64,000 bases of DNA from Bacteroidales bacterium (GCA_016934055.1 JAFGTR010000008.1:69435-133434); one strand, 5' to 3'; shown: positions 14,992 to 49,631, counted from the first letter of the stretch. The notes: a model not told the origin generated them from the letters alone. Numbers and translations are program-made.

Positions 14992-15011
14992 AATTGAACA
15001 ATTGTTCATAT
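14992..15011. promoter_or_regulatory. Palindromic operator, site 1 (aattgaac-aatt-gttcatat)
   Basis: This is a member of the 5-copy motif AA(A/T)TGAAC-N4-GTTCAT(A/T)T. It lies 11 nt upstream of the first possible arsR start. Confidence 0.7.
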
Positions 15012-15021
15012 ATTGAATTAA

Positions 15022-15387
15022 ATGAAAAAACAAAATTCGTATTTATCTGATAATCTATATGTTGAAAAAGACAAAGTGAATTCGGTGAAAAAGACAATGA
15101 AATCCGAAAAGTTTTTTCATTACCTCGCAGAGACTTTTAAAGCCATGAGTGATCCGACAAGAACAAAAATAATCTTTGCCCTCTGCCAGGAAAAAGAATT
15201 ATGCGTCAGCGACATGGCCGCTATAATCGGCACCACAAACTCCGCTATTTCCCACCAGCTAAGAACATTACGAAACATGAAACTGGTCAGATACAATAAA
15301 ATTGGCAGGTTGATTTTTTATTCACTGGATGATATCCATATTAATCATTTATTTGCAGAAGGACTAAGACATGTAGAGGATCTTTAG
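15022..15387 (+). CDS. ArsR/SmtB family metalloregulator (alpha5-site type)
   Basis: The region FKAMSDPTRTKIIFALCQEKELCVSDMAAIIGTTNSAISHQLRTLRNMKLVRY is the ArsR wHTH. The C-terminal LDDIHINHLFAEGLRHVED fits the DxH-x10-H-x2-(E/D) alpha5 metal site of SmtB/CzrA. The start may instead be the ATG at 15097. Confidence 0.85.
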   Translation: MKKQNSYLSDNLYVEKDKVNSVKKTMKSEKFFHYLAETFKAMSDPTRTKIIFALCQEKELCVSDMAAIIGTTNSAISHQLRTLRNMKLVRYNKIGRLIFYSLDDIHINHLFAEGLRHVEDL

Positions 15388-15436
15388 TTTTATTTCACGG
15401 TTGGTTATATGTTCACATATTTACACAAATATAATT

Positions 15437-15682
15437 ATGGTCAGCGAAAACAGTAATATGTCATTAACAGATATGAAAGAAGGTCAGACCGGAATAATTG
15501 TTTCGGTTGCCGGAGGAAAAGGCGCGACAAAAAGACTGGCTGATCTGGGGTTGTCGCCGGGAACCGAGATAAAGGTTATAAGAAAGGCTTTATTTTCCGG
15601 GCCTGTTAAAGTCCTGGTGCGTGGTTCAAGAATAGTCATTGGCCGGGGCCTGGCATTGAAAATCATAGTTGCATTGAAATGA
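15437..15682 (+). CDS. feoA: FeoA family protein
   Basis: LTDMKEGQTGIIVSVAGGKGATKRLADLGLSPGTEIKVIRKALFSGPVKVLVRGSRIVIGRGLALKI is the SH3-like FeoA pattern. I chose the ATG at 15437 rather than the TTG at 15401. Confidence 0.85.
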   Translation: MVSENSNMSLTDMKEGQTGIIVSVAGGKGATKRLADLGLSPGTEIKVIRKALFSGPVKVLVRGSRIVIGRGLALKIIVALK

Positions 15683-17610
15683 CGGAAGAAAAAAAGCTTA
15701 ATATCGTTCTGGCAGGTCAGGGCAATACAGGGAAATCTACTGTATTTAATTTTCTGACAGGTCTGCATCAGCATATCGGCAACTGGGCCGGAAAAACAAT
15801 AGAAAAATCAGAAGGTACCCTTTTCTATAAGGGATATACAGTGGATGTACTTGATCTGCCCGGCATATATTCTTTAACAACTTATTCTGTTGAGGAAGTC
15901 ATATCACGGGAGTATATTATAAATCAGAAACCCGATTGTGTCATAAACATTGTTGATGCCACCAACCTTGAAAGGAACCTGATTTTCACATTTCAGCTGC
16001 TTGAGCTTGAATGTCCGGTTATACTGGTTTTGAACATGGTTGATCTGGCAAAAAAGAAAGGAATTCGCATTGATTCCAAAAAACTCCAGGACATACTTAA
16101 TGTTCATGTTATACCCACCATTGCCTCACGCGGAGCAGGATTAACCTCTATTATTGATAAAGCTATTGAACTAAAAGAAAAAAAAGGGCAACACAAAGTT
16201 CATCATTACGGTAAAGAAATAGAGAATTGCATCAAACAGTTATCCGCTTTACTGGAGGATATAGATATTTCATATCCGGCAAGGTGGATAGCCATTAAGC
16301 TTCTTGAAAAAGATAAGGATATAATAAAACTGGTACAGAAAAAGAAACCGGAAATCCTTGAAAAAACCAAACAACTTCAAGATTATCTTGAGGATATTCA
16401 CGGGCACGATTCTTCACTCGTTATTGCAGATGAAAGAAGCCATCTCACCTGTCGTATCACAAGGGAAACAGAGACAATAGATGCAAACCGGAAGGCTTCA
16501 CTTAATGACAGGCTGTCTGCCATAACCACTGACCGGTTCCTGGGTTATATTGTGATGGTTCTGATTTTGGGAGGGATGTTTCTTACGGTTTTCATGATGG
16601 GCGACTTGCTTTCAGGTTTGTTTGATCCTCTTTTTATCAGCTGGCACAACTGGTGGAATGATACGGTTGGAACCACATTTATTGCTTCGCTTGGATGGGC
16701 GGCGGTTGAAAGTGTACTTGCCCTGGTCCAGATTGCCCTGCCCTATATTTTGCCTTTCTATATTATTTTATATATTCTGGAAGACTGGGGTTATATAGCC
16801 CGGATCTCTTTCCTGATGGACAATCTTATGCATAAAATGGGCATACATGGAAAGGCGTGCATTTCTTTCATCATAGGGCTCGGATGCAATGTTCCCGGGT
16901 GTCTTTCATGCCGCATCATGGAATCAAAACGGGAAAGGTTTATTACTGCCGTTCTTGTCACACTTGTGCCATGTTCAGCCGTATCCGTTATTGTTTTTGG
17001 TCTTGTTGGGAAATATGTGGGATTATTATGGGCTTTCGGATTATACCTTTTTGCACTGTTACTGATTTTCCTGGTTGGAAAAATACTCTCCAGATTGCTT
17101 CTTGGAGAACCTGTGGAGCTTATTATGGCCATGCCCGATTATAAAACACCTCAGATAAAAACAGTGTTATATCAGACATGGGATGCTTTGAAGGAGTTTG
17201 TTTACATAGCGGCGCCAATAGTTGTAATATCAGGCGTTGCAATTCACGGTATTGATCTTGCAGGATGGATGCCGTTTATTTCATCCATTTTAAAGCCTGT
17301 TACTGTTAACTGGCTGGGACTTCCTGCTGTTACGGGCATCCTGCTCATTTTCGGGATTTTGCGAAAAGAACTGATCCTTGTCATGCTGGCAGCATACCTG
17401 GGAACTACTCATTTTTCAGACGTTCTGAGTCCACAACAAATGATAACCTTTGCTGTTGTCAGCATGTTTTATGTTCCCTGCATCGCTACCATATCTGTTC
17501 TCTGGAAAGAATATGGCTGGAAGAAAGCTTTAATTGTATGCGTGCTTGAGATTTTGTTTGCTATACTGCTGGCCGGAATTGTAAACAGGATATTGAATTT
17601 TGTGTTCTAA
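15679..17610 (+). CDS. feoB: Ferrous iron transport protein B
   Basis: The N-terminal G-domain has G1 (GQGNTGKST), G3 (DLPG) and G4 (NMVD). A polytopic membrane domain with gate motifs follows. The start overlaps the feoA stop (ATGA). Confidence 0.9.
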   Translation: MTEEKKLNIVLAGQGNTGKSTVFNFLTGLHQHIGNWAGKTIEKSEGTLFYKGYTVDVLDLPGIYSLTTYSVEEVISREYIINQKPDCVINIVDATNLERNLIFTFQLLELECPVILVLNMVDLAKKKGIRIDSKKLQDILNVHVIPTIASRGAGLTSIIDKAIELKEKKGQHKVHHYGKEIENCIKQLSALLEDIDISYPARWIAIKLLEKDKDIIKLVQKKKPEILEKTKQLQDYLEDIHGHDSSLVIADERSHLTCRITRETETIDANRKASLNDRLSAITTDRFLGYIVMVLILGGMFLTVFMMGDLLSGLFDPLFISWHNWWNDTVGTTFIASLGWAAVESVLALVQIALPYILPFYIILYILEDWGYIARISFLMDNLMHKMGIHGKACISFIIGLGCNVPGCLSCRIMESKRERFITAVLVTLVPCSAVSVIVFGLVGKYVGLLWAFGLYLFALLLIFLVGKILSRLLLGEPVELIMAMPDYKTPQIKTVLYQTWDALKEFVYIAAPIVVISGVAIHGIDLAGWMPFISSILKPVTVNWLGLPAVTGILLIFGILRKELILVMLAAYLGTTHFSDVLSPQQMITFAVVSMFYVPCIATISVLWKEYGWKKALIVCVLEILFAILLAGIVNRILNFVF

Positions 17611-17687
17611 ACACATTTTTATCACAGAAGGGTTAAAAAAAGAAATCATTGAGAAATCGCTTTCTTATTTTTAACAAATATTTTCAC

Positions 17688-18086
17688 TTAAGGATTCATT
17701 GATCTCAGACAATCCAGTTGTTTTGGCTCCTGATTTTCATCCAGCGCCACAAAAACAAAGGTGCCTTCCACCACTTTTTCACGGTTTGAGCCATACATTT
17801 CTTCAGCATAAATCTCCACTTTTACATGAATACGAATAAGCTTAACCTTTTCAATCCGGCCGACTATCTCAATAATCGTATCGGGTTTGATGGTTTTGAG
17901 AAACTTTATCTTCTCAGTGTTCACTGTAAACATATGTTCATGGGCAAAGCGCGTTGCCGTGATAAAAGCCACCTCGTCCATCCACTTCAGGGCTTCGCCG
18001 CCAAATAATGTGTTGTTGGCATTAAGCATACATGGAAATATAGCTTTAAACTGCCGTGTAACACTATTTTCAATAAGATCCAGCAT
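17688..18086 (-). CDS. Acyl-CoA thioesterase (hotdog fold)
   Basis: MLDLIENSVTRQFKAIFPCMLNANNTLFGGEALKWMDEVAFITATRF is typical of YciA/Acot-type thioesterases. I chose the start at 18086 so that the palindrome at 18126 is intergenic. Confidence 0.75.
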   Translation of the reverse strand: MLDLIENSVTRQFKAIFPCMLNANNTLFGGEALKWMDEVAFITATRFAHEHMFTVNTEKIKFLKTIKPDTIIEIVGRIEKVKLIRIHVKVEIYAEEMYGSNREKVVEGTFVFVALDENQEPKQLDCLRSMNP

Positions 18087-18125
18087 GGCAATTAAAATTT
18101 TCTCAAAAATAATGAAAAGTATTTT

Positions 18126-18145
18126 AAATGAACTTATGTTCATTT
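18126..18145. promoter_or_regulatory. Palindromic operator, site 2 (aaatgaac-ttat-gttcattt)
   Basis: This is a perfect 8+8 inverted repeat. It is followed by a TAnnTTTG box (taaatttg, 18153..18160) and then the ATG at 18183. Confidence 0.75.
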
Positions 18146-18182
18146 GTTTTATTAAATTTGTATTAAAAAAGCAATGGATAGA

Positions 18183-18314
18183 ATGAAAAAGATCATAACG
18201 CTGTTATTAACTGTCATGCTGTTTGCATGCTTTTTTTTATCAACAGGTTGTTCAGCTCAAAAGAAGTATAAGGCAGTACCCTGTCCCTGTGAGAAACAGC
18301 ATAAGAACAGATGA
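18183..18314 (+). CDS. Small predicted lipoprotein (43 aa)
   Basis: The sequence is MKKIITLLLTVMLFACFFLSTGCSAQKKYKAVPCPCEKQHKNR, with lipobox LSTGC and a CPC motif. It is below the ORF-track size cut-off. Confidence 0.4.
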   Translation: MKKIITLLLTVMLFACFFLSTGCSAQKKYKAVPCPCEKQHKNR

Positions 18315-18430
18315 AACCACAATAAACCGGAATTGATTGTCCGCGCCCGGTTAAAGATTTTGATCAAAAACAATATCAAAAGAATTATTACATTTAGATA
18401 GAAATTTATATCTGGTTATCAAATAAAAAA

Positions 18431-18844
18431 ATGCCAAACCGAAGAAGATACAGAAGGGTTACCATGCCTCCGCCGATGGAAGGTTTTAAGCCTTTCGGTA
18501 TACCCATGCGTGAACTGGAACCAATTGTTTTACTTTTCGAAGAGTACGAAGCGATCAGGCTTGCCGATTATGAGGATCTGACGCAGGAAGAAGCCGCCTC
18601 TAAAATGAATATTTCAAGGCCTACATTCACCAGAATGTATGACAAAGCCCGAAAAGGTATTGCCAGAGCATTTGTTGAAGGGAAGGCCATTTTCATACAG
18701 GGAGGAACATATGTCACCGATGATTACTGGTACAGATGTTATGACTGCCATGAAACAATGATCTCGATGAAGCCTGCAAAGCACTGCAGAAAATGTGATT
18801 CGGATAATTTAATTCAATTAAACAAACCCGAAAATGCAAAGTGA
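18431..18844 (+). CDS. DUF134 (UPF0251) putative DNA-binding protein with a C-terminal zinc-ribbon extension
   Basis: The N-terminus RRVTMPPPMEGFKPFGIPMRELEPIVLLFEEYEAIRLADYEDLTQEEAASKMNISRPTFTRMYDKARKGIARAFVEGKAI is the DUF134 pattern (sigma-70 region-4-like HTH). The C-terminus has CYDC...CRKC. Confidence 0.75.
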   Translation: MPNRRRYRRVTMPPPMEGFKPFGIPMRELEPIVLLFEEYEAIRLADYEDLTQEEAASKMNISRPTFTRMYDKARKGIARAFVEGKAIFIQGGTYVTDDYWYRCYDCHETMISMKPAKHCRKCDSDNLIQLNKPENAK

Positions 18845-19016: not shown

Positions 19017-19039
19017 AACACATCTGAAACTTTAATACA

Positions 19040-19516: not shown

Positions 19517-19652
19517 CGAACTTTATATTTTAAGTTAAGTATTATGTATAATTGTTTATGCCCCGTGAACTTTTAAAGCATTTAAATGTTTTATTTTAAA
19601 TATTCTTACAAACGAGTAATTCTCATAAAATAATAATTTAAATTTAATAATC

Positions 19653-20120
19653 ATGAAAAATCAAATTGGTATAGACAGCAGTTATTCAAACCAGGTTGTA
19701 GAAAAACTCAATGGTTTGTTAAGCAATGTCCAGGTATTTTACATGAATGTCAGGGGATTTCACTGGAACATTACCGGAAGGCATTTCTTCAAACTTCATG
19801 AAAAATTTGAAGAACTGTATGATGATCTGAATGAAAAAGCAGATGAAATTGCAGAAAGGATTCTTATGCTGGAAGGCAAGCCGGTTCATTCTTTCACGGA
19901 ATACCTGAAAACATCTGAAATTAAAGAAAAGCTCAATGTATCTTCCGATATGGCTACAGTAAAAGAAGTCATTGACGGATTGGGCATCTTGTTGAAAAAG
20001 GAGAGGGAAATCGCATCTTTAGCTGCCGAAAATGCTGATGATGGCACAGTTGATTTAATGACAGGATATATTTCCGGACAGGAAAAGATGGTATGGATGT
20101 ACAATGCATTTTTGAAATAA
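19653..20120 (+). CDS. dps: Dps (DNA starvation/stationary-phase protection protein, ferritin-like)
   Basis: VQVFYMNVRGFHWNITGRHFFKLHEKFEELYDDLNEKADEIAERILMLEG carries the Dps ferroxidase-site pattern (H..W....F..LH..F.E.Y...D..AER). Confidence 0.88.
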   Translation: MKNQIGIDSSYSNQVVEKLNGLLSNVQVFYMNVRGFHWNITGRHFFKLHEKFEELYDDLNEKADEIAERILMLEGKPVHSFTEYLKTSEIKEKLNVSSDMATVKEVIDGLGILLKKEREIASLAAENADDGTVDLMTGYISGQEKMVWMYNAFLK

Positions 20121-20294
20121 ACGATAGAATAATTATTTAAGTTCATTATAACGATTGTTCACTTTCTCAAGGAAAGCCAGTTAATGACCATAATCTGACC
20201 ACTTACCGGTCAATCATTACTTCTTACCGATTTTTCATAGTTTCATGGTTTGATTTTTTCAAACTTTCACCTGTTAATTCAAAAAAACAGTGCT

Positions 20295-20936
20295 ATGAAA
20301 AAAAGTAAAGTTTGTCCCTGGTGGATGGGGTATATGCTTCTATTTCCTTTGCGTAAAATTGGTCAGGATCCCAAAAAAATACTTTCACCCTATATTAAGC
20401 CTGGAATGAGTATTATGGATTATGGTTGCGCCATGGGATATTTCAGTATTCCTCTTGCCCGGATGACCGGCAGGAAAGGGCATGTTTATTGTGTTGATAT
20501 TCAAAAAAAAATGCTGGAAAAACTTAAAAAGAGGTCTGTAAAATATAATGTTACATCTATTATACGGCCATTACAGGTGGGCATAAATTATCATCCGGCC
20601 GATTTATCCGGTCAATTGGATTTCATCCTGCTTTTTGCCGTAGTGCATGAGGTACCGGATAAAGAAAAACTATTCCGTGACCTTTATAAGATGTCTAAAA
20701 GCGGATGCAAAGTCCTGCTTGCCGAACCTAAGAGTCATGTAACAACCCGAAATTTTACGAAATCTTTGCTCTTAGCTCAATCAGCCGGATATAAAGTGAT
20801 TGATGAGAAACCTTTGCAAAACGGATTATGTACATTACTGATGAAACCAAAAGTTGTTGAACCTTTTGAAATGACATCACGATTTAATAAAAAAGATGCT
20901 TTTCAAGACCAACCTGAAATATCAATAGAACAGTAA
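20295..20936 (+). CDS. Class I SAM-dependent methyltransferase
   Basis: It has an N-terminal CPWWMGYML and SAM motif I (IMDYGCAMGYFSIPLA). I chose the start MKKSKV. Confidence 0.7.
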   Translation: MKKSKVCPWWMGYMLLFPLRKIGQDPKKILSPYIKPGMSIMDYGCAMGYFSIPLARMTGRKGHVYCVDIQKKMLEKLKKRSVKYNVTSIIRPLQVGINYHPADLSGQLDFILLFAVVHEVPDKEKLFRDLYKMSKSGCKVLLAEPKSHVTTRNFTKSLLLAQSAGYKVIDEKPLQNGLCTLLMKPKVVEPFEMTSRFNKKDAFQDQPEISIEQ

Positions 20937-25062: not shown

Positions 25063-28000
25063 CTATAAGGGTATGAATTCAACACGGCGGTTATTGGCCC
25101 TTCCTTCGGGGGTTGCATTCGTGTCAACAGGAACAGATTCTCCAAAACCCTGTGTTTCGAGCCGTGACTCATCTATGCCGAATTTTATCAGACTTTCTTT
25201 AACTGCAGCAGCTCTTTGTCTTGACAATATCAGGTTGGAATTATCATCACCCTGGCTATCGGTGTGACCCTCAATACTAAACCTGAGTTCCGGATGTTCT
25301 TTCATAAATGAAGCTATGCGGCTTATCTCAACAAAGGACCGTTCCTTAATAACAGATTTTCCGACATCAAACAATATGTCACGGGACACAAATTTACCCT
25401 GCGCAATTATTTTTTCATAAATGGTAGCACCCTCTTCCGGCGTATTGACAATGCAACCATTTTGATCCGTTACCATCACCGTATACTGGCCCTCAGCCAA
25501 TCCTGTCACATCCTCAGAAGTTTTCCCATGACTCCACAGGTATTGGTAAGGCCCAACCCCTCCGGTCACTGTAATAAATATTGCACCACTTGTATCGCCG
25601 CAACACTTAACGTTTCTTGCCGAGTCAACTGTTAAAACAAGCTTTGGCGGCTCGTTAACCGTTGTTTTTATGGTACGGTTGCAGCCGTTTGCATCTGACA
25701 CAAGAACTGAATAATCACCAGCCACGAGTTTTTCAAGATTCTGGGTTGTTGCATTGTTACTCCACCTGAAGGTATATGGCGGTGTACCTCCATCGGCACT
25801 TATTGTAATGGTTCCGTTTTTATCGCCATAACAATCATTATGTGTAACAGCCAAAAGATCCGACACAAAAGGTGTTGGCTCCGTAATTGTTGCCTCAAGC
25901 TTTGTTTCGCAGCCATTGCCTTCTTTAATGATAACTGAATATGATCCTGCGGGAACATTAAGTAAATCCTGTGTTGTGTTGCCGTTGCTCCACTGATACG
26001 TGTATGGTGCCAAACCTCCGGATACCGAAATATGAACGGAACCGTTGCTCTCACCATTACAGGTTATATGGTTAACTGCATCAATATTACTATATAAAAC
26101 CGGAGGTTCGGTAACCGAAGCCTTTGTGGTTTTCACACATCCGTTAGCATCAGTAACTGTCAGCTCATAATTGCCGGCCGGCATATTCTGGATATCTTTT
26201 GTAACCGCGCCTGTATTCCACTTATAAGAGTATGGTTCCTTACCACCTGTTACTGAAATGGTAACACTGCCATTTTTTTCGCCGCTGCACCGGTTATTAT
26301 TGACTGCTGTATTGTCAACCAACAAAGGCAATGGCTCTTCAATTGATGCCGTAATGATACTGGCACATCCTTTTGCATCTGCCATTTTCAGTGTATAATC
26401 ACCGGCTGCGACATTCAGTAAATCCTGGGTATTCGCACCGTTGCTCCATGAGTATTTATAAGGTTCTACGCCTCCATTAACTGAAACATCTATGGCGCCT
26501 GCCATATCACCAAAACAATTAATGTGTTGTACATTGCTTATTGAAGCCATTAACTGTTCGGGTTCTTTAATAACGGCATTAAGTGTTATCTCACATCCCT
26601 GGTTATCGGTAACCTTCACACTGTAATTACCGGCAGAAACAGAGGCAAGGTTCTGTTCATTGCTTCCATTGCTCCATCCGAAACGGTATGGTAATGTTCC
26701 ACCCTGAACATCAATGCTGATTGATCCTTCCTTATCTCCAAAACAGTTGATATCGTTAACATTTACTATTCGACCTGTAAGCTGGGCGGGTTCAGTAATT
26801 TCAGTTGACAAAACACTCACACACCCGTTAGAATCAGTTATTGACACATTGTATTTGCCAACATAAAGATTTTGAATTGAGGAAGTTGAATCTCCATTAC
26901 TCCATTTATAGCTGTATGGAGGAGTCCCACCAGTCACAGAAGTGCTTATTGATCCCCTGTTCTCTCCCTTACAAGGCACATCTATGACCTCAGCGAAATT
27001 TGCGACCAAAGCAGGCGGCTCATTGACTGTTGTGCTTATGGTTTTCACACACTGATGAGCATCGACCACTTTTAATGTATAGTTGCCTGCCCTGACATTA
27101 TCAAGGTTCTGTTCCCTGGCCCCATGATTCCAATTGTACCGATAAGGTTTTGTCCCTCCGTTCACAGCAACATATACTTTCCCTTTCAGATCACCATTGC
27201 ATTGAATATGTCCTACATTCAGCACAGTGACTTCAAGCGGATCAGGTTTATCCAGCCTGATGCTGTCAGAGAGTTTGCACCCACGGGCGTCTGTAACAGT
27301 AATCTTATAATAGCCTGAAGTTAATCCTCTGAGATTTTGTGTTGAAGAACCATTGCTCCATTCAAAGGCATAAGGTGTTGTACCACCAGTAATTGTGGTT
27401 TTAATGATGCCGTTATTCAGCTCGTAACAGGTTGGATGCATAACCGAATCGATGGAAAGCGAAAAGGAAGGTGGCTGTACAAGCTTCACTTCCTGTACTT
27501 TAACAGCATCATTTGCATCGGTAACTGTAAGGACATAATCTCCTGCAGGCACATTAACCAGTTCATTTACAGTCATCCCGTTGTTCCATTTAAACCGATA
27601 CGGTTTCAAACCACCCTGCACCGAAGTCCTGACATAGCCGGTCATTTCACCATAACAATGAATATGACTTATTGAATCAATACTTATCTGAATTTCATCA
27701 GGCTGTTCAATATTTGCTTCAAGATCTTTACGGCAACCATATGCATCATATACTATAACGGAATAATTTCCGGCCACCAGATCATTAATATTCTGTGTAA
27801 CCGCACCATTGCTCCAGCTATAGGTATAAGGTGGTTTTCCTCCGTCAACCTTGATATGGATACTCCCGTCTTTGCGACCATATTCTATGATATTTTTTAT
27901 CTCTTCAGCAGTAACAGAAAGAAGTGGAGGTTCTGTGACAGAGGTTTCGAGTGTTTTCATACAATTATTGGCATCCTGTATACGCACACTGTATTTTCCG

Positions 28001-31000
28001 GCGCCAACATTACTGAGGTCCTGTTCCTTGCTGCCATTATTCCATGTGTAAATGTATGGCGTAACACCACCTTTAACAGAAATATCAATATTTCCGGTTT
28101 TCTGATCCTTACATAAGACATCCTGTACCGATACAATATCTGCAATAAGCGGATCGGGTTGAGTTACTGAAGCTGAAAGGTTTTGAGAACACCCCATAGC
28201 ATCGGTAATAACCACACTGTATTTACCTACTGTCAGATTGGAAATATCTTCGGTGACAGCACCATTACTCCATTTAAAGTTATAGGGAAGAGTACCGCCT
28301 TTTACGTCAATGCTAATCGCACCGGTGCTGTCGCCGTGACAATTGATATTTTTAACATCGGCAAATGACGCCACCAGTGGTTCAGGTTGTTTAATGTGAG
28401 CGCTGATCTCCTTACTGCAGCCCTGTATATCAACCACGCTAACTGTATAACTACCGGCAACAAGGTCTGAGAGATCCTCGGTTTCAGCACCGTTACTCCA
28501 GCTAAAGTGATATGGTTTAACGCCACCTTTAACCGATAAGTCAATTATACCGTTATTGCCGCCTGAACATTTAATATCTTCAGTTGAGACTATTGACAAC
28601 TCCAGTGGTGGTGGCTCTTTAATCACAGTTGAAAGACTCTTTTCACAACCAGTAGCACCAGTCACCTTAACCCGGTATTCTCCGGCAGGAAGGCTTGTGA
28701 TATCCTGCGTTTGAGCTCCATTCGACCAATCATAGGTATAAGGTTTAACACTCCCTTTTACAAATATGTCTATTTCCCCTTTCTCTTCGCCATTACATGG
28801 GTTATCAATTGTTGAGATAAGTTGAAGCTCAAGTTCTGTAGGCTGCTCAATTTCTGTTTCCAATGTATCAATACATCCGTTCTGATCAGTGGCAATAAGA
28901 GTATATTTTCCGGCTTTTAGATGATCAATGTCCCTTACCGTTTTCTTATTGTTCCACAGATAGGAATAAGGCGTGACACCTCCTTCAAATGCGGTGTGAA
29001 TTACAGCGTTTGAATCGCCATAGCACCGCAGATGTTTTATCTCAGTAATTCTGCCTGTAAATTCAGGTGGTTCATTAATATCAAGGTCCAGATTTGTAAT
29101 GCATGATTTTGCATCAGTAACAATTAATGTGTAATGGCCTGCTTTCACTTTTGACAGATTTTTCGTTTCAATGCCGTTACTCCACTTAAAAGAATATGGT
29201 TCAACACCGCCGTTCACTGTAACCTCAGCTGCACCTGTTGTAAAGCCATAACAATTTACATGGGTAATTTTGTCTGCTGATGCTGTCAGCATGGTGTTTT
29301 GTGTCACATTTGCCTCAAGTCCGGTTTCACAACCATTCTGGTCAGACACAGTTAACCTGTAATCACCGGCTTTGACACCAATCAAATTCTGTGTCGTCAC
29401 TCCGTTACTCCATCGGTAATTATAAGGCGGGACACCACCGCTTACCACCACATCAACAGCGCCTGTCATCTCATCATAACAATCAATATCTGTTATTTTT
29501 TCAATACTGCTGTTCAGCTTTGTAGGTTCTTTCACTGTTGCACTCAATATATTCACACAACCTTTGGCATCTGTAATTTTTACATTATAACTGCCTGCTT
29601 TAATCCCCATATTATCTTTGTCAGTCCGGCCATCGTTCCACAAATAGGCATAAGGGGCTGTACCACCGCGAACACTAAGGCTTATTGATCCTGTTGAATC
29701 ATCTTTACACTTTACATCCGTTATACTGGCAATTTCTGATTCCAGCAATGATGGCTCGCTTATATTAACATCAAGAGTCTGTTCACATCCTTTTGCGTCA
29801 ACCACTTTCAGATGATATTTTCCGGCTTTTATTTTGGTGAGGTTAGGCGTAACGGTTCCGTTGCTCCAGTTGTATTTATATGGTGAAACACCTCCTGTAA
29901 CCGAAATATTTACCAATCCCTCAGCTTCTCCAAAGCAATTTATATCAACAACTTCAGTGGTTTTAACATCGAGAACGGGATTCTCATTAATTGTAATTCT
30001 TAACGAATCAACACATTGATTTCTGTCGATTATCTGTACAAAATAATCCCCGGCAGGCACACTGGCTATATCCTGTGTTCTGGCACCATTACTCCAGTTG
30101 TATGTATAAGGGGGTGTACCGCCTGAGACATTGATATCGGCAATACCTTGCCGGTCACCAAAACAAAGATTATGACTGAGTGATTGAATTTCTGATTCCA
30201 ATTCATCAGGCTGTTCTATTGTCCCTTTTAAAGTCTTGCTCATGCCATGTGCATCTGTAATTGTGAGGCTGTAGGTGCCGGCGCTTAAATTCCTGATATC
30301 CTGAGTTGTTGCACCATTACTCCAGTTAAATTTATAAGGTGATACGCCTCCTTTGACAGAAACTTCGATATAGCCATTTTTCTCTCCGTAACATAGAATA
30401 TGTTGCAGGTTTTCAATCTCGGCTTCAAGTAAAGTTGGCTGTTCAATGTTAACACTGATAGTACTTACACATTTGTTGGCATCAGTTATTCTACAGGTGT
30501 AATTATTGGCCGGCAGATTGGCAATATCTTTTGTTTTCGATCCATTACTCCATTCGTATTTATACGGGGCAACGCCACCCTTCACATCAAGGTAAACAGC
30601 ACCGTTTGATTCACCAAAGTTCACAACATTTTTAACCTCTTTAACATCAACCTCAACTCTTTCAGGTTCAGTAATTTCCTGCATAAACCGCTTTGTACAT
30701 TTACGGGCATCCGTTAAAACCAGGTTATAGACTCCGGCAGCAAGTCCGGCCAGATCTTCTGTATATGACAAACTATCGTTCCATGCAAAAGTGTAAGGTT
30801 TTGAGCCTCCATCAACTTTAATATTGATGGCGCCGCTTTTATCACCGGCACAATATATATTTCTGATCTCTTCCAATTCAATGATAACCGGATCCGGTTC
30901 AAAAACCTTTGTTGAATAAGCTTCCATACATCCGCGGCTATCAGTCACCTGAACAGTATATGTTCCTGCAACCAGGCTGTCAAGATCTTCAGTAGTCTCT

Positions 31001-40048: not shown

Positions 40049-40060
40049 AGTAGTATAAAT

Positions 40061-40210
40061 AAAAAAACCGCTTCGTTGCGAACGAAACGGTATACAGGTT
40101 ATTGATTATATTCAAAATACAATATACCATTTTCCTCCGCTGTTATTATACATATCAGGTTCAGGGGTATATTCTCAGCTTGTTTTCTGCAAGCACCCCC
40201 AACGGTATTG
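40061..40210 (-). promoter_or_regulatory. TPP (THI-box) riboswitch with terminator expression platform
   Basis: The minus strand reads AUACCguuGGGGGUGCuugcagaaaacaagCUGAGAauauACCCcugaACCUGAUauguaUAAUaaCAGCGgAGGAAAauGGUAU (aptamer 40124..40208). It is followed by the hairpin accguuucguucgcaacgaagcggu (40068..40090) and U7 (40061..40067), 12 nt before the ATG at 40048. Confidence 0.9.
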
Positions 40211-42831: not shown

Positions 42832-44169
42832 TTATCTATCTTTAATACACCGGACCGAAAATCCGTATGATTTCGGAAATGTATTCCATCGCCCGCATAA
42901 ATGAGAATTAATGTCGAGACATCTTCTCCAGGCAAAGTCTCCATCATATGCGGTAGAAGTCCACATGTATTCAAACATGCCGGCCAGGCTGTAAATACCA
43001 CCTGTCGAACGTCTGCCTGATAATTGAGCATTGTAACCTGAGCTGCCCCCAACGATAAGTTTAGTGCCAACACTGTCGCCCCGCCATGTGTTAACCATAT
43101 CAGCTTCTTCCCTTGTCATGCCTAAAAACATTTCCAGCTCTTTATACTCTTCATCGGAAGGAACGTGCCATCCACAGGGACAAATCCCCTGTGCCTGCTC
43201 AACCGTTGAATTATTCATTGCCACATCCCATGTATACAATCTTCCATATACCGGAACATAATTCGTATCATCATTATAGGTATAACTGATAACAGGCTCA
43301 CCGGAAGGATTATGGGTTACCCTCAGGTTTTCCTTCATCCAGGTTTGCTCACCTATCTTAACAATGGCATAAGTATTACCGTCAATATCGGTTAACCTGT
43401 CCGACAGATTCACGGTAATCACCACGGTCTGATCCTCCTGGTCGGTTACAGTCAATACATAAGTACCGGCTCCAAGATCAAACAGATCTTCCTCATTGGA
43501 GCCGTTTGACCATGAACAGGTATAGGGAGGATACCCATTGCTGATGGTAACATCAATGTTTCCATCTTTTAATCCTGTTTCTGAAGGTGAAACAACCGTA
43601 TATTTAACAATAAGCTCACCCTGATCCGGCTGTGATATGAATATACTGTCAGTAAGTGATGAATTCACCGCATCAGTCACGGTAAGATAATACATCCCTG
43701 CTTCCAGGCCTTTTATTTCACTCTCTGAAGAACCATTTGACCATTTGTACCGGTATGGTTCAACACCTCCGGTAACAGTGGCTGAAGCTGATCCGTCGGC
43801 TCCACCGTAGAATGACACATTATTTCCCGTGATCACAAGAACAAGGGTTTCCGGTGCAGGCTGGCTTACAAAAAAAGTGTCTGTCTGTGAACTTTTATTA
43901 TTATCAGTAACTGTTATAATATAAGTCCCGGCAGAAAGGCTGTCGATATCCTCGGTTGTCTTACCGCCTGTCCATAAAAATGAATAGGGTGGTATCCCGC
44001 CTGAAACCGTTAAATCTACGCTCCCGTCATGACCTCCGTATTCCGTTACATCTTCAATTGAAGCACTTAATACAAGAGGGTCAGGGAAAGTTTCTCCGGG
44101 CTCTTCCCTGCAATGCTGCAATGAAAAGAAAAGAATACCATATAAAGCAATATAAAATACTCTTTTCAT
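42832..44169 (-). CDS. Secreted protein: 3 Cys-less SprB-like repeats plus a Fibrobacter succinogenes major paralogous (FISUMP) domain
   Basis: The repeats read GG.PPY...W(T/S).G...E....L.AG.Y..TVTD. The C-terminus DIDGNTYAIVKIGEQTWMKENLRV...YGRLYTWDVAM...CPCGWHVPSDEEYKELEMFLG...GFSVRCIKD matches the FISUMP pattern. Confidence 0.75.
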   Translation of the reverse strand: MKRVFYIALYGILFFSLQHCREEPGETFPDPLVLSASIEDVTEYGGHDGSVDLTVSGGIPPYSFLWTGGKTTEDIDSLSAGTYIITVTDNNKSSQTDTFFVSQPAPETLVLVITGNNVSFYGGADGSASATVTGGVEPYRYKWSNGSSESEIKGLEAGMYYLTVTDAVNSSLTDSIFISQPDQGELIVKYTVVSPSETGLKDGNIDVTISNGYPPYTCSWSNGSNEEDLFDLGAGTYVLTVTDQEDQTVVITVNLSDRLTDIDGNTYAIVKIGEQTWMKENLRVTHNPSGEPVISYTYNDDTNYVPVYGRLYTWDVAMNNSTVEQAQGICPCGWHVPSDEEYKELEMFLGMTREEADMVNTWRGDSVGTKLIVGGSSGYNAQLSGRRSTGGIYSLAGMFEYMWTSTAYDGDFAWRRCLDINSHLCGRWNTFPKSYGFSVRCIKDR

Positions 44170-44757: not shown

Positions 44758-46122
44758 TTATCTTTCCCTGTTCTGAATCTGGTAAATTAACTCTTCAGCT
44801 GCCCTGATAATGGGATTATTAACCGGAGAAGCCGTTAATAAAGGATGTGTGCCAATCTGATAAGAAACCAGTTCAAAAACTGTAATAGATTTCTGGATAG
44901 CCATGCTGATGATATTGATGATCTCGCCAACTGATTTTCCGCCCCAGGCTTCACCGCCCAGAATACTACCATCAACAGGCGAAGCATAGAGTTTCACCGT
45001 CAGGTTTGAAGTATCTGATAAAGTTCCGGGGTGCCTGTCAGGCGATGAGAACTTAGCAGAGATGACATTAGCCTGTGCTTCAATGGCACTCTTTTCATTC
45101 GCCCCTGAAGCCGCCATGGCAAGTTTGTTAATTTCTGTAGAAAATACACCAAGAGTACCCGTAATGCATTTTTTAATGCGAATACCAAAAATATTATGGC
45201 CCAATACACGTGCTTCGGCAGTTGCAGTTGAAGCCAGTTTTATCAGGTCGCTCCGCCCTGTCAGGAAGCCAAAAGTCTGAGCACAGTCACCCACAGCACT
45301 GACGTCTTGAACGGATGTGCGTCCGTAACTGTCAACATGAATATCGCCGTATCTGTTTAATTCAAGACCGGTTTCCTGTGCAAGTCGTGTATTAGCCTTA
45401 TAACCTATTGAAAAAATAACAGCATCAGCTGCAATCTTATTCCCGTCAGCAAGCAATACACTGTTTACCTTATTATCCACCCCGATTATCTCTTTGACGC
45501 GTGTTGAAGTCAGAACATTGACACCTGTCTTCTTAAGCTCTTCCGTGGCTATCTGGCTTAATTCAGGTGAAAAAGCCTTAGAGAAACAGGTTGGTTCACT
45601 TTCAACCAGGGTTACATTTAATTGAGCTGTTGCCAGCTGCTCAGCAACTTCAGCCCCGATGAAGCCACCCCCTACAATAACAATACTTTTAAAGCCACTT
45701 ACCCTTAAAGCCAATTCCTTTATATAATTATAGCTTTTTTTGATATAAAAGATGTTCTGAAGATTATAGCCTGGTATGAAATCAGGAATCTGGGGGAAGG
45801 ACCCTGTGGCAAAAACAAGCTTTTCATAACCAATTTCTCCTCCGGTGTTTAAAACAACAAGCTTTTGCTTTTTATCCACTTTAGCCACTGTATCAACAAG
45901 AACTTCTCCGCCTAAGTCAATAAAAGGCTTTGGACCCATCTTATTCTTTTCGGCATCCCCACCAAGCAAATGAAAAACATAAGGAATCCCACACGGCACA
46001 AGACCGTCTGCCTCTTCTTTAACCATCAATACTTCTTTAGCATTAAAGAACTTCTTAATTGTCATTCCGGTTACAATGGCCGCAGGGCCTCCTCCGATAA
46101 TCACTACATCATACTTTTTCAT
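44758..46122 (-). CDS. FAD-dependent pyridine nucleotide-disulfide oxidoreductase (NADH oxidase/CoADR-like, single Cys)
   Basis: It has MKKYDVVIIGGGPAA and the putative redox Cys in LVPCGIPYVF. A second dinucleotide motif (IVIVGGGFIGAEVAEQL) and GDC follow. Confidence 0.8.
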   Translation of the reverse strand: MKKYDVVIIGGGPAAIVTGMTIKKFFNAKEVLMVKEEADGLVPCGIPYVFHLLGGDAEKNKMGPKPFIDLGGEVLVDTVAKVDKKQKLVVLNTGGEIGYEKLVFATGSFPQIPDFIPGYNLQNIFYIKKSYNYIKELALRVSGFKSIVIVGGGFIGAEVAEQLATAQLNVTLVESEPTCFSKAFSPELSQIATEELKKTGVNVLTSTRVKEIIGVDNKVNSVLLADGNKIAADAVIFSIGYKANTRLAQETGLELNRYGDIHVDSYGRTSVQDVSAVGDCAQTFGFLTGRSDLIKLASTATAEARVLGHNIFGIRIKKCITGTLGVFSTEINKLAMAASGANEKSAIEAQANVISAKFSSPDRHPGTLSDTSNLTVKLYASPVDGSILGGEAWGGKSVGEIINIISMAIQKSITVFELVSYQIGTHPLLTASPVNNPIIRAAEELIYQIQNRER

Positions 46123-46171
46123 ACATTAATAATTAATAATTATTACTCGACTGTTGTTTATAATTAATTGA

Positions 46172-46543
46172 TCATTGCTCCTTAATTTCAAACATATTAC
46201 CGCTCCTGTCCCAGATAAAATACGTTTGAGAACTCATTCCTTTCCTGCTTACGGCTTTATAACCGGCACTGATGGCCCTATGGTATAATGCTTCAGATTG
46301 CCGGTATTTCAGACAAACATGCGAGAACACCTTTCTTTCTTCCAATGGGGTTATAAACATCTCAAATTCCAGATCATTATTCCCCATGACATAAACATCC
46401 ACCTCCTCCGGCACATTAAATACTGTTTCAGAAACATTCTCATTTATTGAAAAAGTGCGTAAGATTGTAAAATGTAAAACATTTTTGTAAAAAGCATCAA
46501 TTTCTTCGGGATCATTTATTGCAAATGCAACATGTTGCAGCAT
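46172..46543 (-). CDS. VOC/glyoxalase family protein
   Basis: It is 123 aa with MLQHVAFAINDPEEIDAFYKNVL and paired beta-alpha-beta-beta-beta modules, including H and E metal-ligand positions (HVAF, HVCL, FEIKE). Confidence 0.65.
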   Translation of the reverse strand: MLQHVAFAINDPEEIDAFYKNVLHFTILRTFSINENVSETVFNVPEEVDVYVMGNNDLEFEMFITPLEERKVFSHVCLKYRQSEALYHRAISAGYKAVSRKGMSSQTYFIWDRSGNMFEIKEQ

Positions 46544-46574
46544 ATCGTCATGTCAATGTAAAAAAAGCAAATTT

Positions 46575-46594
46575 AATTGAACTTCTGTTCATTT
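46575..46594. promoter_or_regulatory. Palindromic operator, site 3 (aattgaac-ttct-gttcattt)
   Basis: It lies in the 88-bp divergent region between the VOC gene (start 46543, -) and the ICMT-like gene (start 46632, +). Confidence 0.7.
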
Positions 46595-46631
46595 TAAAAC
46601 TTATTAGATTAATTTTAAAAAAAATTCAATC

Positions 46632-47153
46632 ATGTTGCTGTTTATACTATTATGTCTTATCTGTTTAACCAGTTATTACCTGCATACACTCTGGCATTAC
46701 CGGATCTATAAAGGAGTTAATTTTGAACAACGGGGTAAACTTTTCAGCTTATACACCCATTTCATAGTTTTTATCGGTTATTTCGCTTTTGGCATGATGA
46801 TCTTTACCGATCCTCTCAAAATAAGTATTGACATTATCCTCAGAATTGCCGGTCTGATCATAGGTTTATCAGGTATTGTGATTGGTGTTGTTGCTACAAT
46901 TCAAAAAAAAGGCTATACCGATACGGATCAATTAATTACAAAAGGAATATATGCCAGGTTACGCAATCCGATGTATCTCGGGATTATTTTTATTCATATT
47001 GGTCTGCCTTTATTCTTCGGGAGCCTGATAACCCTTTTATCCGCTTTTGTCTGGATACCCATGATTATATTATGGAAAATCTGGGAAGAAAAGCACCTTG
47101 AAAACAAATATGGAAAGCAGTACAACACTTATAAAAAACAAACACTTTTTTAG
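46632..47153 (+). CDS. Isoprenylcysteine carboxyl methyltransferase (ICMT/PEMT) family membrane protein
   Basis: It has 4-5 TM segments and the C-terminal motif LITKGIYARLRNPMYLGIIFIHIG...WEEKHLENKYGKQY. Confidence 0.78.
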   Translation: MLLFILLCLICLTSYYLHTLWHYRIYKGVNFEQRGKLFSLYTHFIVFIGYFAFGMMIFTDPLKISIDIILRIAGLIIGLSGIVIGVVATIQKKGYTDTDQLITKGIYARLRNPMYLGIIFIHIGLPLFFGSLITLLSAFVWIPMIILWKIWEEKHLENKYGKQYNTYKKQTLF

Positions 47154-47260
47154 TCGGATTAAACACTCATGAGACAAAGTCGCATCCAACTTAGATCTTT
47201 CAGAACAGCAGGCCGTGTCAATGGCGCTCATTGTCTTTTTTTAGCTAAAAAAGATGTCTT

Positions 47261-47280
47261 AAATGAACAAATGTTCATTT
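47261..47280. promoter_or_regulatory. Palindromic operator, site 4 (aaatgaac-aaat-gttcattt)
   Basis: This is a perfect 8+8 inverted repeat, 33 nt upstream of the ATG at 47313. Confidence 0.75.
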
Positions 47281-47312
47281 TATTATGTTTATTTTTATCA
47301 AAAAAGTGATTT

Positions 47313-48095
47313 ATGATGAAAATAACAGTTCTTACCGATAACACACCCGGAAAGCATACCGAAGCCGAACACGGTTTATCATATCTTATTGAATTCGATG
47401 GTAAAAGACTGCTTTTTGATACAGGGCAAAGCAATTTATTTATAAAGAATGCTGAAGTCATGGGTGTTGATGTGACAAACATTGATATGATCATTCTCAG
47501 CCACGGTCATTTCGACCATGGAGACGGATTACCTTATCTTTCCGGGGGGAAATTATTATGTCATCCGGGATGTTTTGTCAAACGCTACCGGAAAATTGAC
47601 CATTCCTATATCGGATTGGTAAATACGCAGGATGAACTTAAAGAAAAATATGAACTTATAACATCAGCTTCACCTTTTTATATAACGGAAAAGATTATAT
47701 TCCTTGGTGAAATCCCCCGCCTGACTGATTTCGAGTCGAAGCATACTTCCTTTGTTTTTGAAGACGGCAGTCCTGATTTTGTGATGGATGACAGTGCTAT
47801 AGCTATGATCCTTGATAAAGGCATATTTGTTGTCACCGGTTGCGGACATGCAGGAATTGTGAACACGCTTGAACATGCCAGAATAGTGACAGAAATAAAA
47901 AAACTTTATGGTGTCATGGGTGGTTTTCATTTGAAGGCAGCAGACAGGCAAACAGAAGAAACAATCCGTTACCTCAAAGACAGCGGAATAACATATGTTT
48001 ATCCCTCACATTGTACAGTTGAACCGGCCCTTTCTTTGTTTCATAAGAACTTCCCGGCTAAACAGGTGAAGACAGGCGATTTTTTCAGTTTTTAA
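47313..48095 (+). CDS. MBL-fold metallo-hydrolase
   Basis: It has KITVLTDNT...EHGLSYLIEFDGKRLLFDTGQS and ILSHGHFDHGDGL (HxHxDH), then TGCGHAG. Confidence 0.8.
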   Translation: MMKITVLTDNTPGKHTEAEHGLSYLIEFDGKRLLFDTGQSNLFIKNAEVMGVDVTNIDMIILSHGHFDHGDGLPYLSGGKLLCHPGCFVKRYRKIDHSYIGLVNTQDELKEKYELITSASPFYITEKIIFLGEIPRLTDFESKHTSFVFEDGSPDFVMDDSAIAMILDKGIFVVTGCGHAGIVNTLEHARIVTEIKKLYGVMGGFHLKAADRQTEETIRYLKDSGITYVYPSHCTVEPALSLFHKNFPAKQVKTGDFFSF

Positions 48096-48105
48096 CAATC
48101 TTTCC

Positions 48106-49131
48106 ATGGAAGAAATTTTTGTTTCAACACTTAAACAGTCATTAATGATAACAGTTTTTGTTCTGTTTATGATGGTTGTAATTGAATACATCAACGTGCA
48201 GAGCAAAAACCTGTGGGCTGAAAAGTTAAGGCAATCTCCATTTTTACAAATAATAATAGCAGCCTTGCTGGGCATAACACCAGGTTGTATGGGCGCATTC
48301 ACTGTGGTTTCGTTGTACACTCACCGTATGATGGGACTCGCAGGTCTGGTTACCGTAATGATTGCAACATCGGGCGATGAAGCCTTTGTAATGTTTGCGC
48401 TTTTCCCGGGGAAAGCTCTTTTATTAAATGTTGTTTTGCTGACAGTAGCGATAGTGTCAGGATGGCTGGTACACTTATTTAACAGGAAAAGCAATATTAA
48501 AAAAGAGGTACAGGGTTATGTTATACACGAACAGGAATACTGCAAATGCTTTACCAGACATTTAATCGTTCCGCAACTGAAAGCTATTTCATTTGAAAGA
48601 GCTATACTGTTGCTGTTTATTCTTTTGTTTACAGTAATGCTGCTGGCAGGAATCATCGGAAACAGTGAATGGGACTGGAAAAAAATAACATTCCTTTCAG
48701 GCAGCCTTTTCCTTTTATTTGTATTTATTACCGTTCCTGAACATTTCTTAAAAGAACATTTATATGAGCATATCCTTAAAAAACATTTGTTGAGATTATT
48801 TTTGTGGACCTGGGGAGCATTTATTGCATTGCATTTTATCCAAACAAACATAGAATTAAGTAACCTGTTACAAAACAATTCGAGTTTGGTATTACTTTCA
48901 GCTGTTTTGCTCGGCCTTATCCCCGAATCAGGTCCGCATTTGTTGTTTGTCACATTGTTTTCACAAAGCCTTTTGCCTTTCAGCATATTGCTGGCAAATT
49001 CGATTGTACAGGATGGTCATGGTATGTTGCCTTTGCTGGCAGAATCACGTAAAGATTTTGTCAGGGTAAAGGCCATAAACATGCTTGTTGGCCTGCTGAT
49101 TGGATTTATACTTTTACAATTCGGACTGTAA
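48106..49131 (+). CDS. Polytopic membrane protein, putative 10-TM heavy-metal exporter (ArsP_2-like) family
   Basis: It has about 10 TM segments in two halves. GITPGCMGAF and GLIPESGPHLLFVTLF resemble the paired motifs of that family. This is from memory and tentative. Confidence 0.5.
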   Translation: MEEIFVSTLKQSLMITVFVLFMMVVIEYINVQSKNLWAEKLRQSPFLQIIIAALLGITPGCMGAFTVVSLYTHRMMGLAGLVTVMIATSGDEAFVMFALFPGKALLLNVVLLTVAIVSGWLVHLFNRKSNIKKEVQGYVIHEQEYCKCFTRHLIVPQLKAISFERAILLLFILLFTVMLLAGIIGNSEWDWKKITFLSGSLFLLFVFITVPEHFLKEHLYEHILKKHLLRLFLWTWGAFIALHFIQTNIELSNLLQNNSSLVLLSAVLLGLIPESGPHLLFVTLFSQSLLPFSILLANSIVQDGHGMLPLLAESRKDFVRVKAINMLVGLLIGFILLQFGL

Positions 49132-49164
49132 TCAATTATACTTAATGCAGCAAATTATCAGTTA

Positions 49165-49488
49165 ATGGATGAACCTGCAACAGAAACAACACAATCAGAC
49201 CTTCAAAAAGCTGAGATCATTTTTGCCGACATAATGAAATTAAAAAAAAATGAAAGAATAGTATGTCCTGCTATATGGATTGATGATGGTGAAAAATATG
49301 ATAATCAACCGGAAAATATCAAAACAGGATATATTGTGTATGGCATTCATCTTGTTGATATTTTTTTTAACATGTCAAGCAAAGAAACAGGGCACCCCAT
49401 TAATTTAAAGGCTATGAAGACTAATGAAATACACGAAGGATACTATACAAATTCAAACAGGTTTATAATTGAATGGATTGATTACTAA
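49165..49488 (+). CDS. Hypothetical cytoplasmic protein (107 aa)
   Basis: The ORF has plausible codon usage and follows the exporter gene by 33 nt. I recognise no motif. Confidence 0.4.
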   Translation: MDEPATETTQSDLQKAEIIFADIMKLKKNERIVCPAIWIDDGEKYDNQPENIKTGYIVYGIHLVDIFFNMSSKETGHPINLKAMKTNEIHEGYYTNSNRFIIEWIDY

Positions 49489-49611
49489 TTAAAGCCCTGA
49501 TAACCATAATAACACAAAATTAGCGGAATACTTTTAACATAATTAAAGGCACATTTTAAAAAGCTAAAGAGACGCCCGGTAAGTTCTATGACTGTTCAAA
49601 AAAGATAATTG

Positions 49612-49631
49612 AAATGAACCTATGTTCATTT
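49612..49631. promoter_or_regulatory. Palindromic operator, site 5 (aaatgaac-ctat-gttcattt)
   Basis: This is a perfect 8+8 inverted repeat. It is followed by a consensus TAnnTTTG box (tatctttg, 49639..49646) and the ATG at 49673. Confidence 0.75.

Follow-up and report, generated by a model that had tools for sequence, protein, structure and literature searches.

A candidate ArsR/SmtB-type repressor, its probable palindromic operator and a predicted regulon around feoAB and Fe-S protein genes in Bacteroidales

Which protein reads a 20-bp palindrome that recurs ahead of five transcription units in one stretch of Bacteroidales DNA, and to what signal would it respond? The stretch comprises 64,000 nucleotides of a Bacteroidales bacterium (GCA_016934055.1 JAFGTR010000008.1:69435-133434; hereafter the window, with positions counted from its first letter), and the units concerned include arsR-feoAB, encoding an ArsR/SmtB-family metalloregulator and an Fe(II) import system, as well as a cluster of genes related to those of the ORP (orange protein) complex and to iron-sulphur (Fe-S) carriers. 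ArsR/SmtB sensors are textbook switches of single operons for efflux or sequestration, whereas at least five promoters around an importer and Fe-S/ORP-type genes appear to be involved here. Sequence comparison supports the view that a canonical SmtB-type repressor and its operator run an atypical, conserved multi-promoter regulon around Fe(II) import and ORP/Fe-S genes in a group of uncultured, anaerobic Bacteroidales, and we consider it likely that the five palindromes are operators of the ArsR protein encoded at 15022-15387. The predicted target set is unlike those of all described ArsR/SmtB regulons, and no description of an ArsR-feoAB regulon was found in the literature searched.

The palindrome, its promoters and the candidate repressor

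The core TGAACNNNNGTTCA has exactly five matches in the window, at 14995, 18129, 46578, 47264 and 49615, compared with an expectation of 0.07 (the mean of 100 dinucleotide-preserving shuffles, with a maximum of one copy in any shuffle), and the extended 20-mer AAWTGAACNNNNGTTCATWT fits all five places with no mismatch, at 14992, 18126, 46575, 47261 and 49612. A preliminary description of this DNA had listed these five copies and held them to be beyond chance, and both points stand. The sites, termed O1 to O5, are AATTGAACAATTGTTCATAT (O1, 14992-15011) at the arsR-feoAB promoter, AAATGAACTTATGTTCATTT (O2, 18126-18145) upstream of a lipoprotein-DUF134 gene pair and with a thioesterase gene diverging from it, AATTGAACTTCTGTTCATTT (O3, 46575-46594) between divergent VOC and PEMT genes, AAATGAACAAATGTTCATTT (O4, 47261-47280) ahead of genes for a metallo-beta-lactamase-fold (MBL) protein and an ArsP_2 permease, and AAATGAACCTATGTTCATTT (O5, 49612-49631) ahead of the orp-like cluster. 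All five perfect core sites are intergenic, a placement that is improbable (about 0.11^5) because some 89% of the window is coding in a greedy map of open reading frames (ORFs). Read from the sequence, the 20-mer ends 10-41 nt before the next start codon, namely 10 nt before arsR, 28-37 nt before the lipoprotein gene, 32 nt before the MBL gene, 41 nt before the first NifX/ORP-like gene and, at O3, 37 nt before the PEMT gene and 31 nt before the VOC gene on the other strand, in agreement with the earlier statement that every copy is intergenic and lies 10-60 nt from a start. The four one-mismatch variants of the core in the window have no A/T flanks, and all of them are situated within coding sequence. 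The sole intergenic variant with two mismatches is the half-palindrome ATAACGATTGTTCA at 20148-20161, between a Dps-like gene (19653-20120) and a gene for an S-adenosylmethionine (SAM) methyltransferase (20295-20936), which may represent a weak or decayed operator.

The Bacteroidota -7 box reads TAnnTTTG. Two boxes had been noticed previously at 18153 and 49639, and they are indeed present as TAAATTTG (18153-18160) and TATCTTTG (49639-49646), with O2 and O5 each ending 7 nt upstream of the respective box. The VOC gene contributes a third perfect box, CAAATTTA (46567-46574, minus strand), which directly adjoins O3, and a near-consensus box, AATCTTTG, lies at 14978-14985, just upstream of O1. 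Given the latter box, O1 covers approximately +1 to +20, i.e. the transcription start, and O2, O3 and O5 occupy the stretch from the -33 element to the -7 element of their promoters. Over the non-redundant sites, the start of the box shows preferred offsets of 10, 18 or 1-2 nt past the core. Because the operators overlap either the -33/-7 space or the transcription start, an ArsR dimer bound at them would be expected to block RNA polymerase, and the idea of promoter occlusion by a bound repressor holds in silico, as judged from operator position relative to the -7 boxes. In such a complex, the two recognition helices of a winged-helix ArsR dimer would lie on the TGAA and TTCA half-sites of a 12-2-12-type repeat.

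The proposed repressor (15022-15387, +) belongs to the ArsR/SmtB family according to Pfam (PF01022, HTH_5, E=4e-14), NCBIfam (NF033788, 86.7 bits against a cutoff of 55) and its top matches in the Protein Data Bank (PDB), which are SmtB (1r1t, E=5e-21), followed by CadC (E=2e-19), NmtR and CzrA. Its recognition helix, NSAISHQLR, aligns with that of SmtB (TTNSAISHQLRTLRN here and VSESAVSHQLRSLRN in SmtB), and its alpha5 site DxHx10Hx2D (D104-I-H106-x10-H117-VE-D120) is in register with the SmtB alpha5 ligands D104/H106/H117/E120. Among 120 ArsR orthologues there is little or no variation at S74, S77, H78, D104, H106 and H117, and 101 of them have E at position 120 and 17 have D. With D104, H106 and H117 kept and E or D at position 120, the protein fits the alpha5 motif of the family, DxHx10Hx2(H/E) (PMC11672702). 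Published 12-2-12 operators of SmtB/ArsR proteins, AATACCTGAACA-GA-TGTTCAAGTATT and TACAATTGAATA-GT-TGTTCAATTGTT (PMC8790569), have the TGAAC-N4-GTTCA core and the geometry (TGAACA-xx-TGTTCA) in common with the window sites, confirming the ArsR/SmtB-type operator geometry that the preliminary description had attributed to the palindrome. The consensus of 62 unique sites from the window and its relatives is AAaTGAACA-ta-TGTTCATtT.

An HTH_5 domain, an alpha5 motif, a 12-2-12 operator at a promoter and a site on the regulator's own promoter are features of the alpha5-type sensors, such as SmtB of Synechococcus, CzrA of S. aureus and AzuR/AztR of Anabaena, all of which use 12-2-12 operators; all four features are seen here, the last of them judged by position only. 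The window protein shares with this group the fold, the recognition helix SAxSHQLR, the alpha5 ligands, the TGAACA-xx-TGTTCA core and an operator that overlaps the promoter. It differs in an N-terminal arm without Cys, in an alpha3 helix that has C55 and C61 but no CxC, in the number of promoters (at least five, rather than one efflux or metallothionein operon) and in the targets, which include feoAB, the orp-like Fe-S cluster, DUF134, VOC, PEMT and MBL genes. The alpha3 helix is similar to that of CadC (S. aureus pI258 / Listeria; ALCQEKELCVSD here and ALCQDEELCVCD in CadC). However, the alpha3N Cd/Pb site is incomplete because the N-terminal Cys pair and the second Cys of CxC are missing: residues 1-54 contain no Cys, and C61 is accompanied by S, R or H at position 63, where Cys occurs in just 10 of the 120 orthologues. 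As(III)-sensing ArsR proteins possess a three-Cys site, e.g. CVC-x2-C in alpha3. An As(III) sensor was ruled out here, the cysteines of the protein being C55 and C61 only, and an arsenic regulon, to which the ars-like ArsP_2, VOC and methyltransferase genes might point, was rejected for the lack of this site and because arsR is tied to feoAB.

Conservation in related loci

A scan of a genome collection with the ArsR query yielded 26 loci from Bacteroidales/Rikenellaceae metagenome-assembled genomes (MAGs), and a metagenome scan with the MBL protein yielded 80 loci. The order arsR-feoA-feoB is kept in all 26 arsR loci, with feoB syntenic wherever the contig extends far enough, and each carries a palindrome 22-66 nt before arsR (18 perfect, five with one mismatch and three with two), lending in silico support to the autoregulation of arsR proposed earlier. 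In the window, the spacer between arsR and feoA contains a decayed second operator, TGGTTATATGTTCA (15402-15415), of which the right half alone is intact; in ten related loci, including the 88%-identical L001, this spacer holds TGAATATATGTTCA, with one mismatch. Perfect sites number 78 in all fetched related loci (970 kb), against about one expected. A motif equally common in coding sequence had been named as an outcome that would speak against a regulon; of 82 perfect sites in the related loci and the window, 78 are intergenic in DNA that is 87% coding, and three of the remaining four are artefacts of ORF calling.

The same holds for the other targets. MBL genes of at least about 60% protein identity have a perfect site about 50 nt upstream (22 perfect and three one-mismatch sites within 400 nt), 17 of 19 DUF5320 homologues have an upstream site with at most one mismatch (DUF5320/NifX), and further sites in relatives precede VOC, PEMT and DUF134 orthologues at protein identities of 60-90%. 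Across orthologues, the sites keep their promoter positions while the surrounding intergenic DNA diverges. This conservation before orthologous genes supports, at the level of sequence, the earlier proposal of a dispersed regulon that joins feoAB to Fe-S/NifX-like genes. Gene arrangements around the sites recur as well: O2 is conserved in L001 (at 13049), and the thioesterase arrangement is the same in L001 and L034, both of which encode a homologue of the small lipoprotein; the order VOC-site-MBL is found in L031, L034, L045, L088 and L090, and site-PEMT-MBL in L029; and the orp-like cluster is syntenic through its radical SAM gene in L034, L038 and L024. Additional genes adjacent to sites in relatives encode a NifU-like scaffold, a 2x[4Fe-4S] ferredoxin, a 1-Cys peroxiredoxin, DUF169 and DUF4405 proteins, a His-rich DUF6769 protein and a second FeoAB.

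Tandem operators spaced 23-26 bp apart were observed in L015 (12492/12518), L018 (6135/6161), L048 (11740/11766) and L074 (8468/8491). They precede a divergent DUF134 paralogue (40-48% identity) heading NifX-NifX-DUF89-MinD-MinD clusters, and they recall the paired repeats of the smtA operator-promoter. In five loci with MBL homologues of 53-59% identity (L065, L067, L068, L069 and L083), TGAACN4GTTCA is absent throughout, and the same families are nevertheless encoded (Mrp, TrmO, VOC, CobO, Pyr_redox, radical SAM and MinD). Because MBL homologues below about 60% identity thus combine these gene families with no motif, the loci suggest that regulation has been rewired outside the clade. A Mangrovibacterium sp. 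MAG (L107) has TGAAC-N4-GATCA variants at 8467 and 9321, which precede an MBL gene and a small ORF ahead of DUF134-Dps-methyltransferase genes, in a gene order like that of the window at 18.4-21.7 kb.

Rival binding proteins, control logic and signal

The window encodes three DNA-binding proteins that could be the regulator, namely ArsR, the DUF134/UPF0251 protein (18431-18844) and a Crp/Fnr protein (3294-3926, +), and several considerations weigh against the choice of ArsR. Canonical ArsR allostery would induce the importer feoAB as metal rises, which is odd, given that importer induction by metal is found in no characterised ArsR member, the responses being of the efflux type (PMC11672702); the assignment rests on family-level specificity and position; the DUF134 gene is physically linked to motif-bearing operons more often than arsR, although linkage alone is not decisive; and Crp/Fnr proteins, too, read palindromes of 4-6-4 geometry. 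We regard it as quite improbable that the DUF134 protein binds the palindrome, with arsR-feoAB merely one of its targets. The protein combines a sigma-70 region-4-like helix-turn-helix with four Cys near the C terminus, a motif that might serve as a sensor of metal or redox state, it belongs to a family of unknown function (no functional study of DUF134/UPF0251 was found in the literature searched), and in many loci its gene lies within or beside motif-bearing operons (DUF134-MBL and DUF134-NifX-NifX-DUF89-MinD-MinD). However, a site within 400 nt upstream is present for 12 of 24 DUF134 homologues, eight having nothing above background, compared with 26 of 26 arsR genes, and genomes with two to three DUF134 paralogues at 40-50% identity (L013, L015 and L046) still have a single invariant motif, which is the published SmtB/ArsR operator and finds the SmtB recognition helix in ArsR. 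ArsR is preferred because half of the DUF134 genes have no site and because the operator has SmtB specificity; DUF134, named as the alternative regulator in the preliminary description, is better seen as a facultative target. Distant DUF134 loci were sought as a falsification test, and the homologue search returned close Bacteroidales relatives only. Recognition of the 5-4-5 palindrome by another dimeric regulator encoded elsewhere, e.g. the Crp/Fnr protein, is more improbable still. FNR-type boxes, TTGAT-N4-ATCAA, do have the 4-6-4 geometry, and distant Crp homologues stand beside DUF134 or MBL genes in L058, L060, L065 and L067, but the motif is wholly absent from the Crp-adjacent loci L065 and L067, and ArsR already covers the sequence, position and conservation of the sites. 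The Crp/Fnr protein of the window itself was rejected as the regulator, as no palindrome site lies near its gene, no conserved Crp linkage with palindrome sites was found and Crp/Fnr genes neighbour these target families solely in lineages from which the motif is absent; the gene neighbours divergent thioredoxin/glutaredoxin-type genes (531-1570, -). The alternative that the palindromes have no regulatory role, being a plain repeat or a product of chance or base composition, is effectively refuted already: their flanks are A/T-rich, like promoter DNA generally, but none of the 100 shuffles reached two copies, the sites are intergenic and keep their promoter positions across orthologues in differing DNA as described above, and a repeat of 14-20 bp lacks the length for a mobile element or a stable hairpin.

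With ArsR as the preferred repressor, we infer by analogy that a divalent metal bound at alpha5 (D104, H106, H117 and E/D120) would release the protein from its operators and switch on all units together. In characterised ArsR/SmtB sensors, ligand binding inhibits and never activates DNA binding, and the metals sensed by this ArsR cluster are Cu(I), Zn(II), Ni(II), Co(II), Cd(II) and Pb(II), Fe(II) not being listed (PMC11672702). The resulting puzzle of control logic is an importer that is derepressed as metal rises. As a working guess, the signal would be metal stress or Fe/Fe-S homeostasis. One option is that a competing metal (Zn, Co, Ni or Cd) is sensed, inducing the exporter, iron import and Fe-S carrier proteins; another is that Fe(II) availability serves as a feed-forward signal for reducing conditions, in parallel to the control of orp by the [4Fe-4S] redox sensor OrpR in Desulfovibrio. 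ArsR could also follow a Fur-like logic, with Fe(II) as co-repressor and the regulon on in iron shortage, an alternative that we consider unlikely. FeoAB is an uptake system whose genes, in other bacteria, are under repression by Fur or DtxR in the metal-loaded form, a shortage of iron or clusters often induces genes for Fe-S carriers, and an Fe(II) sensor is not yet assigned in this clade. As in Fur/DtxR control of feoAB, a palindromic operator would place Fe(II) import under a metal-responsive repressor at the feo promoter; the protein family and the operator differ, however, and metal is a co-repressor for Fur and DtxR but releases ArsR/SmtB proteins. Activation by ligand would be at odds with every characterised ArsR/SmtB sensor (PMC11672702), and a regulon with an ArsP_2 exporter, and with a Dps-like gene nearby, is a better fit to metal excess.

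It is conceivable, though we doubt it, that this ArsR is the first member of the ArsR/SmtB family to respond to Fe(II) or Fe-S status, acting as a master iron/Fe-S regulator that functionally replaces Fur/IscR within a clade of anaerobic Bacteroidales. Such a regulator would couple Feo import to the ORP machinery, DUF134 and the ArsP_2 exporter, either through feed-forward induction by available ferrous iron or through an inverted co-repressor allostery. The protein is a candidate iron or Fe-S sensor for Bacteroidales lineages in which iron regulation is poorly known. The predicted regulon also provides a regulatory context, and testable expression conditions, for homologues of the ORP complex and for the DUF134/UPF0251, DUF5320, DUF89, DUF169 and TM1679-like MBL proteins. 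If the Fe(II)- or Fe-S-responsive reading were true, it would assign the ORP complex and DUF134 a role in metal and Fe-S trafficking and offer a simple genetic switch for their study.

Predicted target genes, the orp-like cluster and neighbouring features

Pfam analysis reproduced the gene calls of the preliminary description (ArsR, FeoA/FeoB, 4HBT, DUF134, VOC, PEMT/ICMT, MBL, 10TM exporter, NifX-like, MinD-like and radical SAM). In the window, the predicted regulon consists of arsR-feoAB and at least four further transcription units, perhaps with the divergent thioesterase gene included. Downstream of O1, arsR is followed by feoA (15437-15682, +; Pfam FeoA) and feoB, encoding the Fe(II) transporter (15679-17610, +; Pfam FeoB_N, Gate and FeoB_C). 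The first gene past O2 is a small lipoprotein ORF recognised from its translation (MKKII...LSTGC; 18174-18314, +), which is probably co-transcribed with the gene for the DUF134/UPF0251 putative DNA-binding protein (18431-18844, +; Pfam DUF134); a terminator scan of the intervening DNA gave little information and no convincing candidate. The DUF134 protein has a C-terminal CxxC...CxxC pattern; its last residues, YRCYDC...HCRKC, form a four-Cys motif of the zinc-ribbon or rubredoxin-like kind. On the other side of O2, the 4HBT thioesterase gene (17688-18086, -; Pfam 4HBT) was listed as an ORF extending to 18143, inside the palindrome, and its likelier start is 18086. O3 is flanked by a VOC/glyoxalase-family gene (46172-46543, -; Pfam), whose -7 box adjoins the operator, and a gene for a PEMT/ICMT-like membrane methyltransferase (46632-47153, +; Pfam PEMT). 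The operon behind O4 encodes a TM1679-like MBL-fold protein (47313-48095, +; Pfam Lactamase_B; PDB 3h3e, E=1e-30), an ArsP_2 putative metal/arsenic efflux permease with ten transmembrane (TM) segments (48106-49131, +; Pfam ArsP_2, 139 bits; NCBIfam NF037962, "arsenic efflux protein", 131.9 bits against a cutoff of 100) and, as its last product, a small protein of unknown function (49165-49488, +) with a homologue in L034. Among the target classes seen there is one efflux-type permease, ArsP_2; the operon of arsR itself encodes the importer FeoAB, and most targets are of the Fe-S/ORP type.

The genes downstream of O5, described earlier as cryptic metallocluster genes, make up, by sequence, an orp-like cluster in a loose sense. 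The cluster opens with a gene for an ORP/MTH1175-like NifX-domain protein (49673-49987, +; Pfam Nitro_FeMo-Co), which matches the ORP of Desulfovibrio gigas (PDB 2wfb, E=1.1e-7) and MTH1175 (E=1e-7). It continues with genes for a DUF5320 protein (50000-50341, +; Pfam), a second NifX-domain protein (50499-50837, +; Pfam, with PDB matches of the PH0822 and TM1290 type), an ARMT1/DUF89-like protein (50849-51730, +; Pfam, 211 bits), two overlapping, Orp3/Orp4-like MinD/CbiA P-loop ATPases (52049-52909 and 52893-53792, +; Pfam CbiA/ParA and Fer4), each with a 2x[4Fe-4S] ferredoxin insert, and an Mrp/NBP35 Fe-S carrier ATPase (53770-54585, +; Pfam ParA/NUBPL, 297 bits). The last conserved gene encodes a radical SAM protein (54582-55520, +; Pfam) and is followed by def (55526-56041). 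The ORP complex of Desulfovibrio vulgaris comprises Orp3/4, Orp8 and Orp9 (PMC6345978), and the cluster is called orp-like because its MinD-ferredoxin pair, its ORP-like protein and its Mrp protein match these components, the pair having the two [4Fe-4S] motifs of Orp3/Orp4 and the ORP-like protein resembling the orange protein Orp8. It is not a strict orp set because Mrp is unfused to a NifX domain and extra genes, for DUF5320, DUF89 and radical SAM proteins, have been added; the product of 53770-54585 is a single-domain protein, and its NCBIfam MrpORP scores are far under the 450-bit cutoff.

The targets are similar to those of the OrpR-orp system of D. vulgaris, also an anaerobe, in the MinD-like pair with two [4Fe-4S] motifs, the ORP/NifX-domain protein and Mrp/NBP35. 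OrpR of Desulfovibrio, an activator of the sigma-54 enhancer-binding type, detects the redox state by means of a [4Fe-4S] PAS domain and controls the two orp operons only (PMC8359166, PMC6345978). In contrast, the orp-like cluster of the window has a sigma-70-type Bacteroidota promoter, with a TAnnTTTG box and an ArsR-type operator, and the same orp-like genes would be wired differently by phylum, through a sigma-54 activator in Desulfovibrio and through an ArsR repressor here. Sigma-54/OrpR-type control of the cluster was rejected, as -24/-12 matches in the window are at chance level (63 versus 58 expected), and the same pattern scan detected none in the O5 promoter region. One -24/-12-like match, TGGCATGTTGTTAGC at 51825, lies in a 318-nt gap inside the cluster (51731-52048) that separates the DUF89 gene from the first of the MinD genes.

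Other features of the window were recorded alongside. Directly upstream of arsR, an operon at 12717-14372 (+) encodes an extracytoplasmic function (ECF) sigma factor, a zf-HC2 anti-sigma factor and a 'Metal_resist' (CpxP/ZraP-like) protein; its adjacency to arsR is not kept in the orthologous loci. A thiamine pyrophosphate (TPP) riboswitch (Rfam RF00059, 63.5 bits) is located at 40115-40210 (-), upstream of a thiamine-related block at 35.4-40.0 kb with methyltransferase, ThiE-like and TenA-like genes. A 2204-amino-acid ORF occupies 25063-31677 (-), and a SprB-repeat / Fib_succ_major protein with a faint match to a type IX secretion system (T9SS) sorting domain is encoded at 42832-44169 (-); both are probably cell-surface proteins unrelated to the palindrome regulon.

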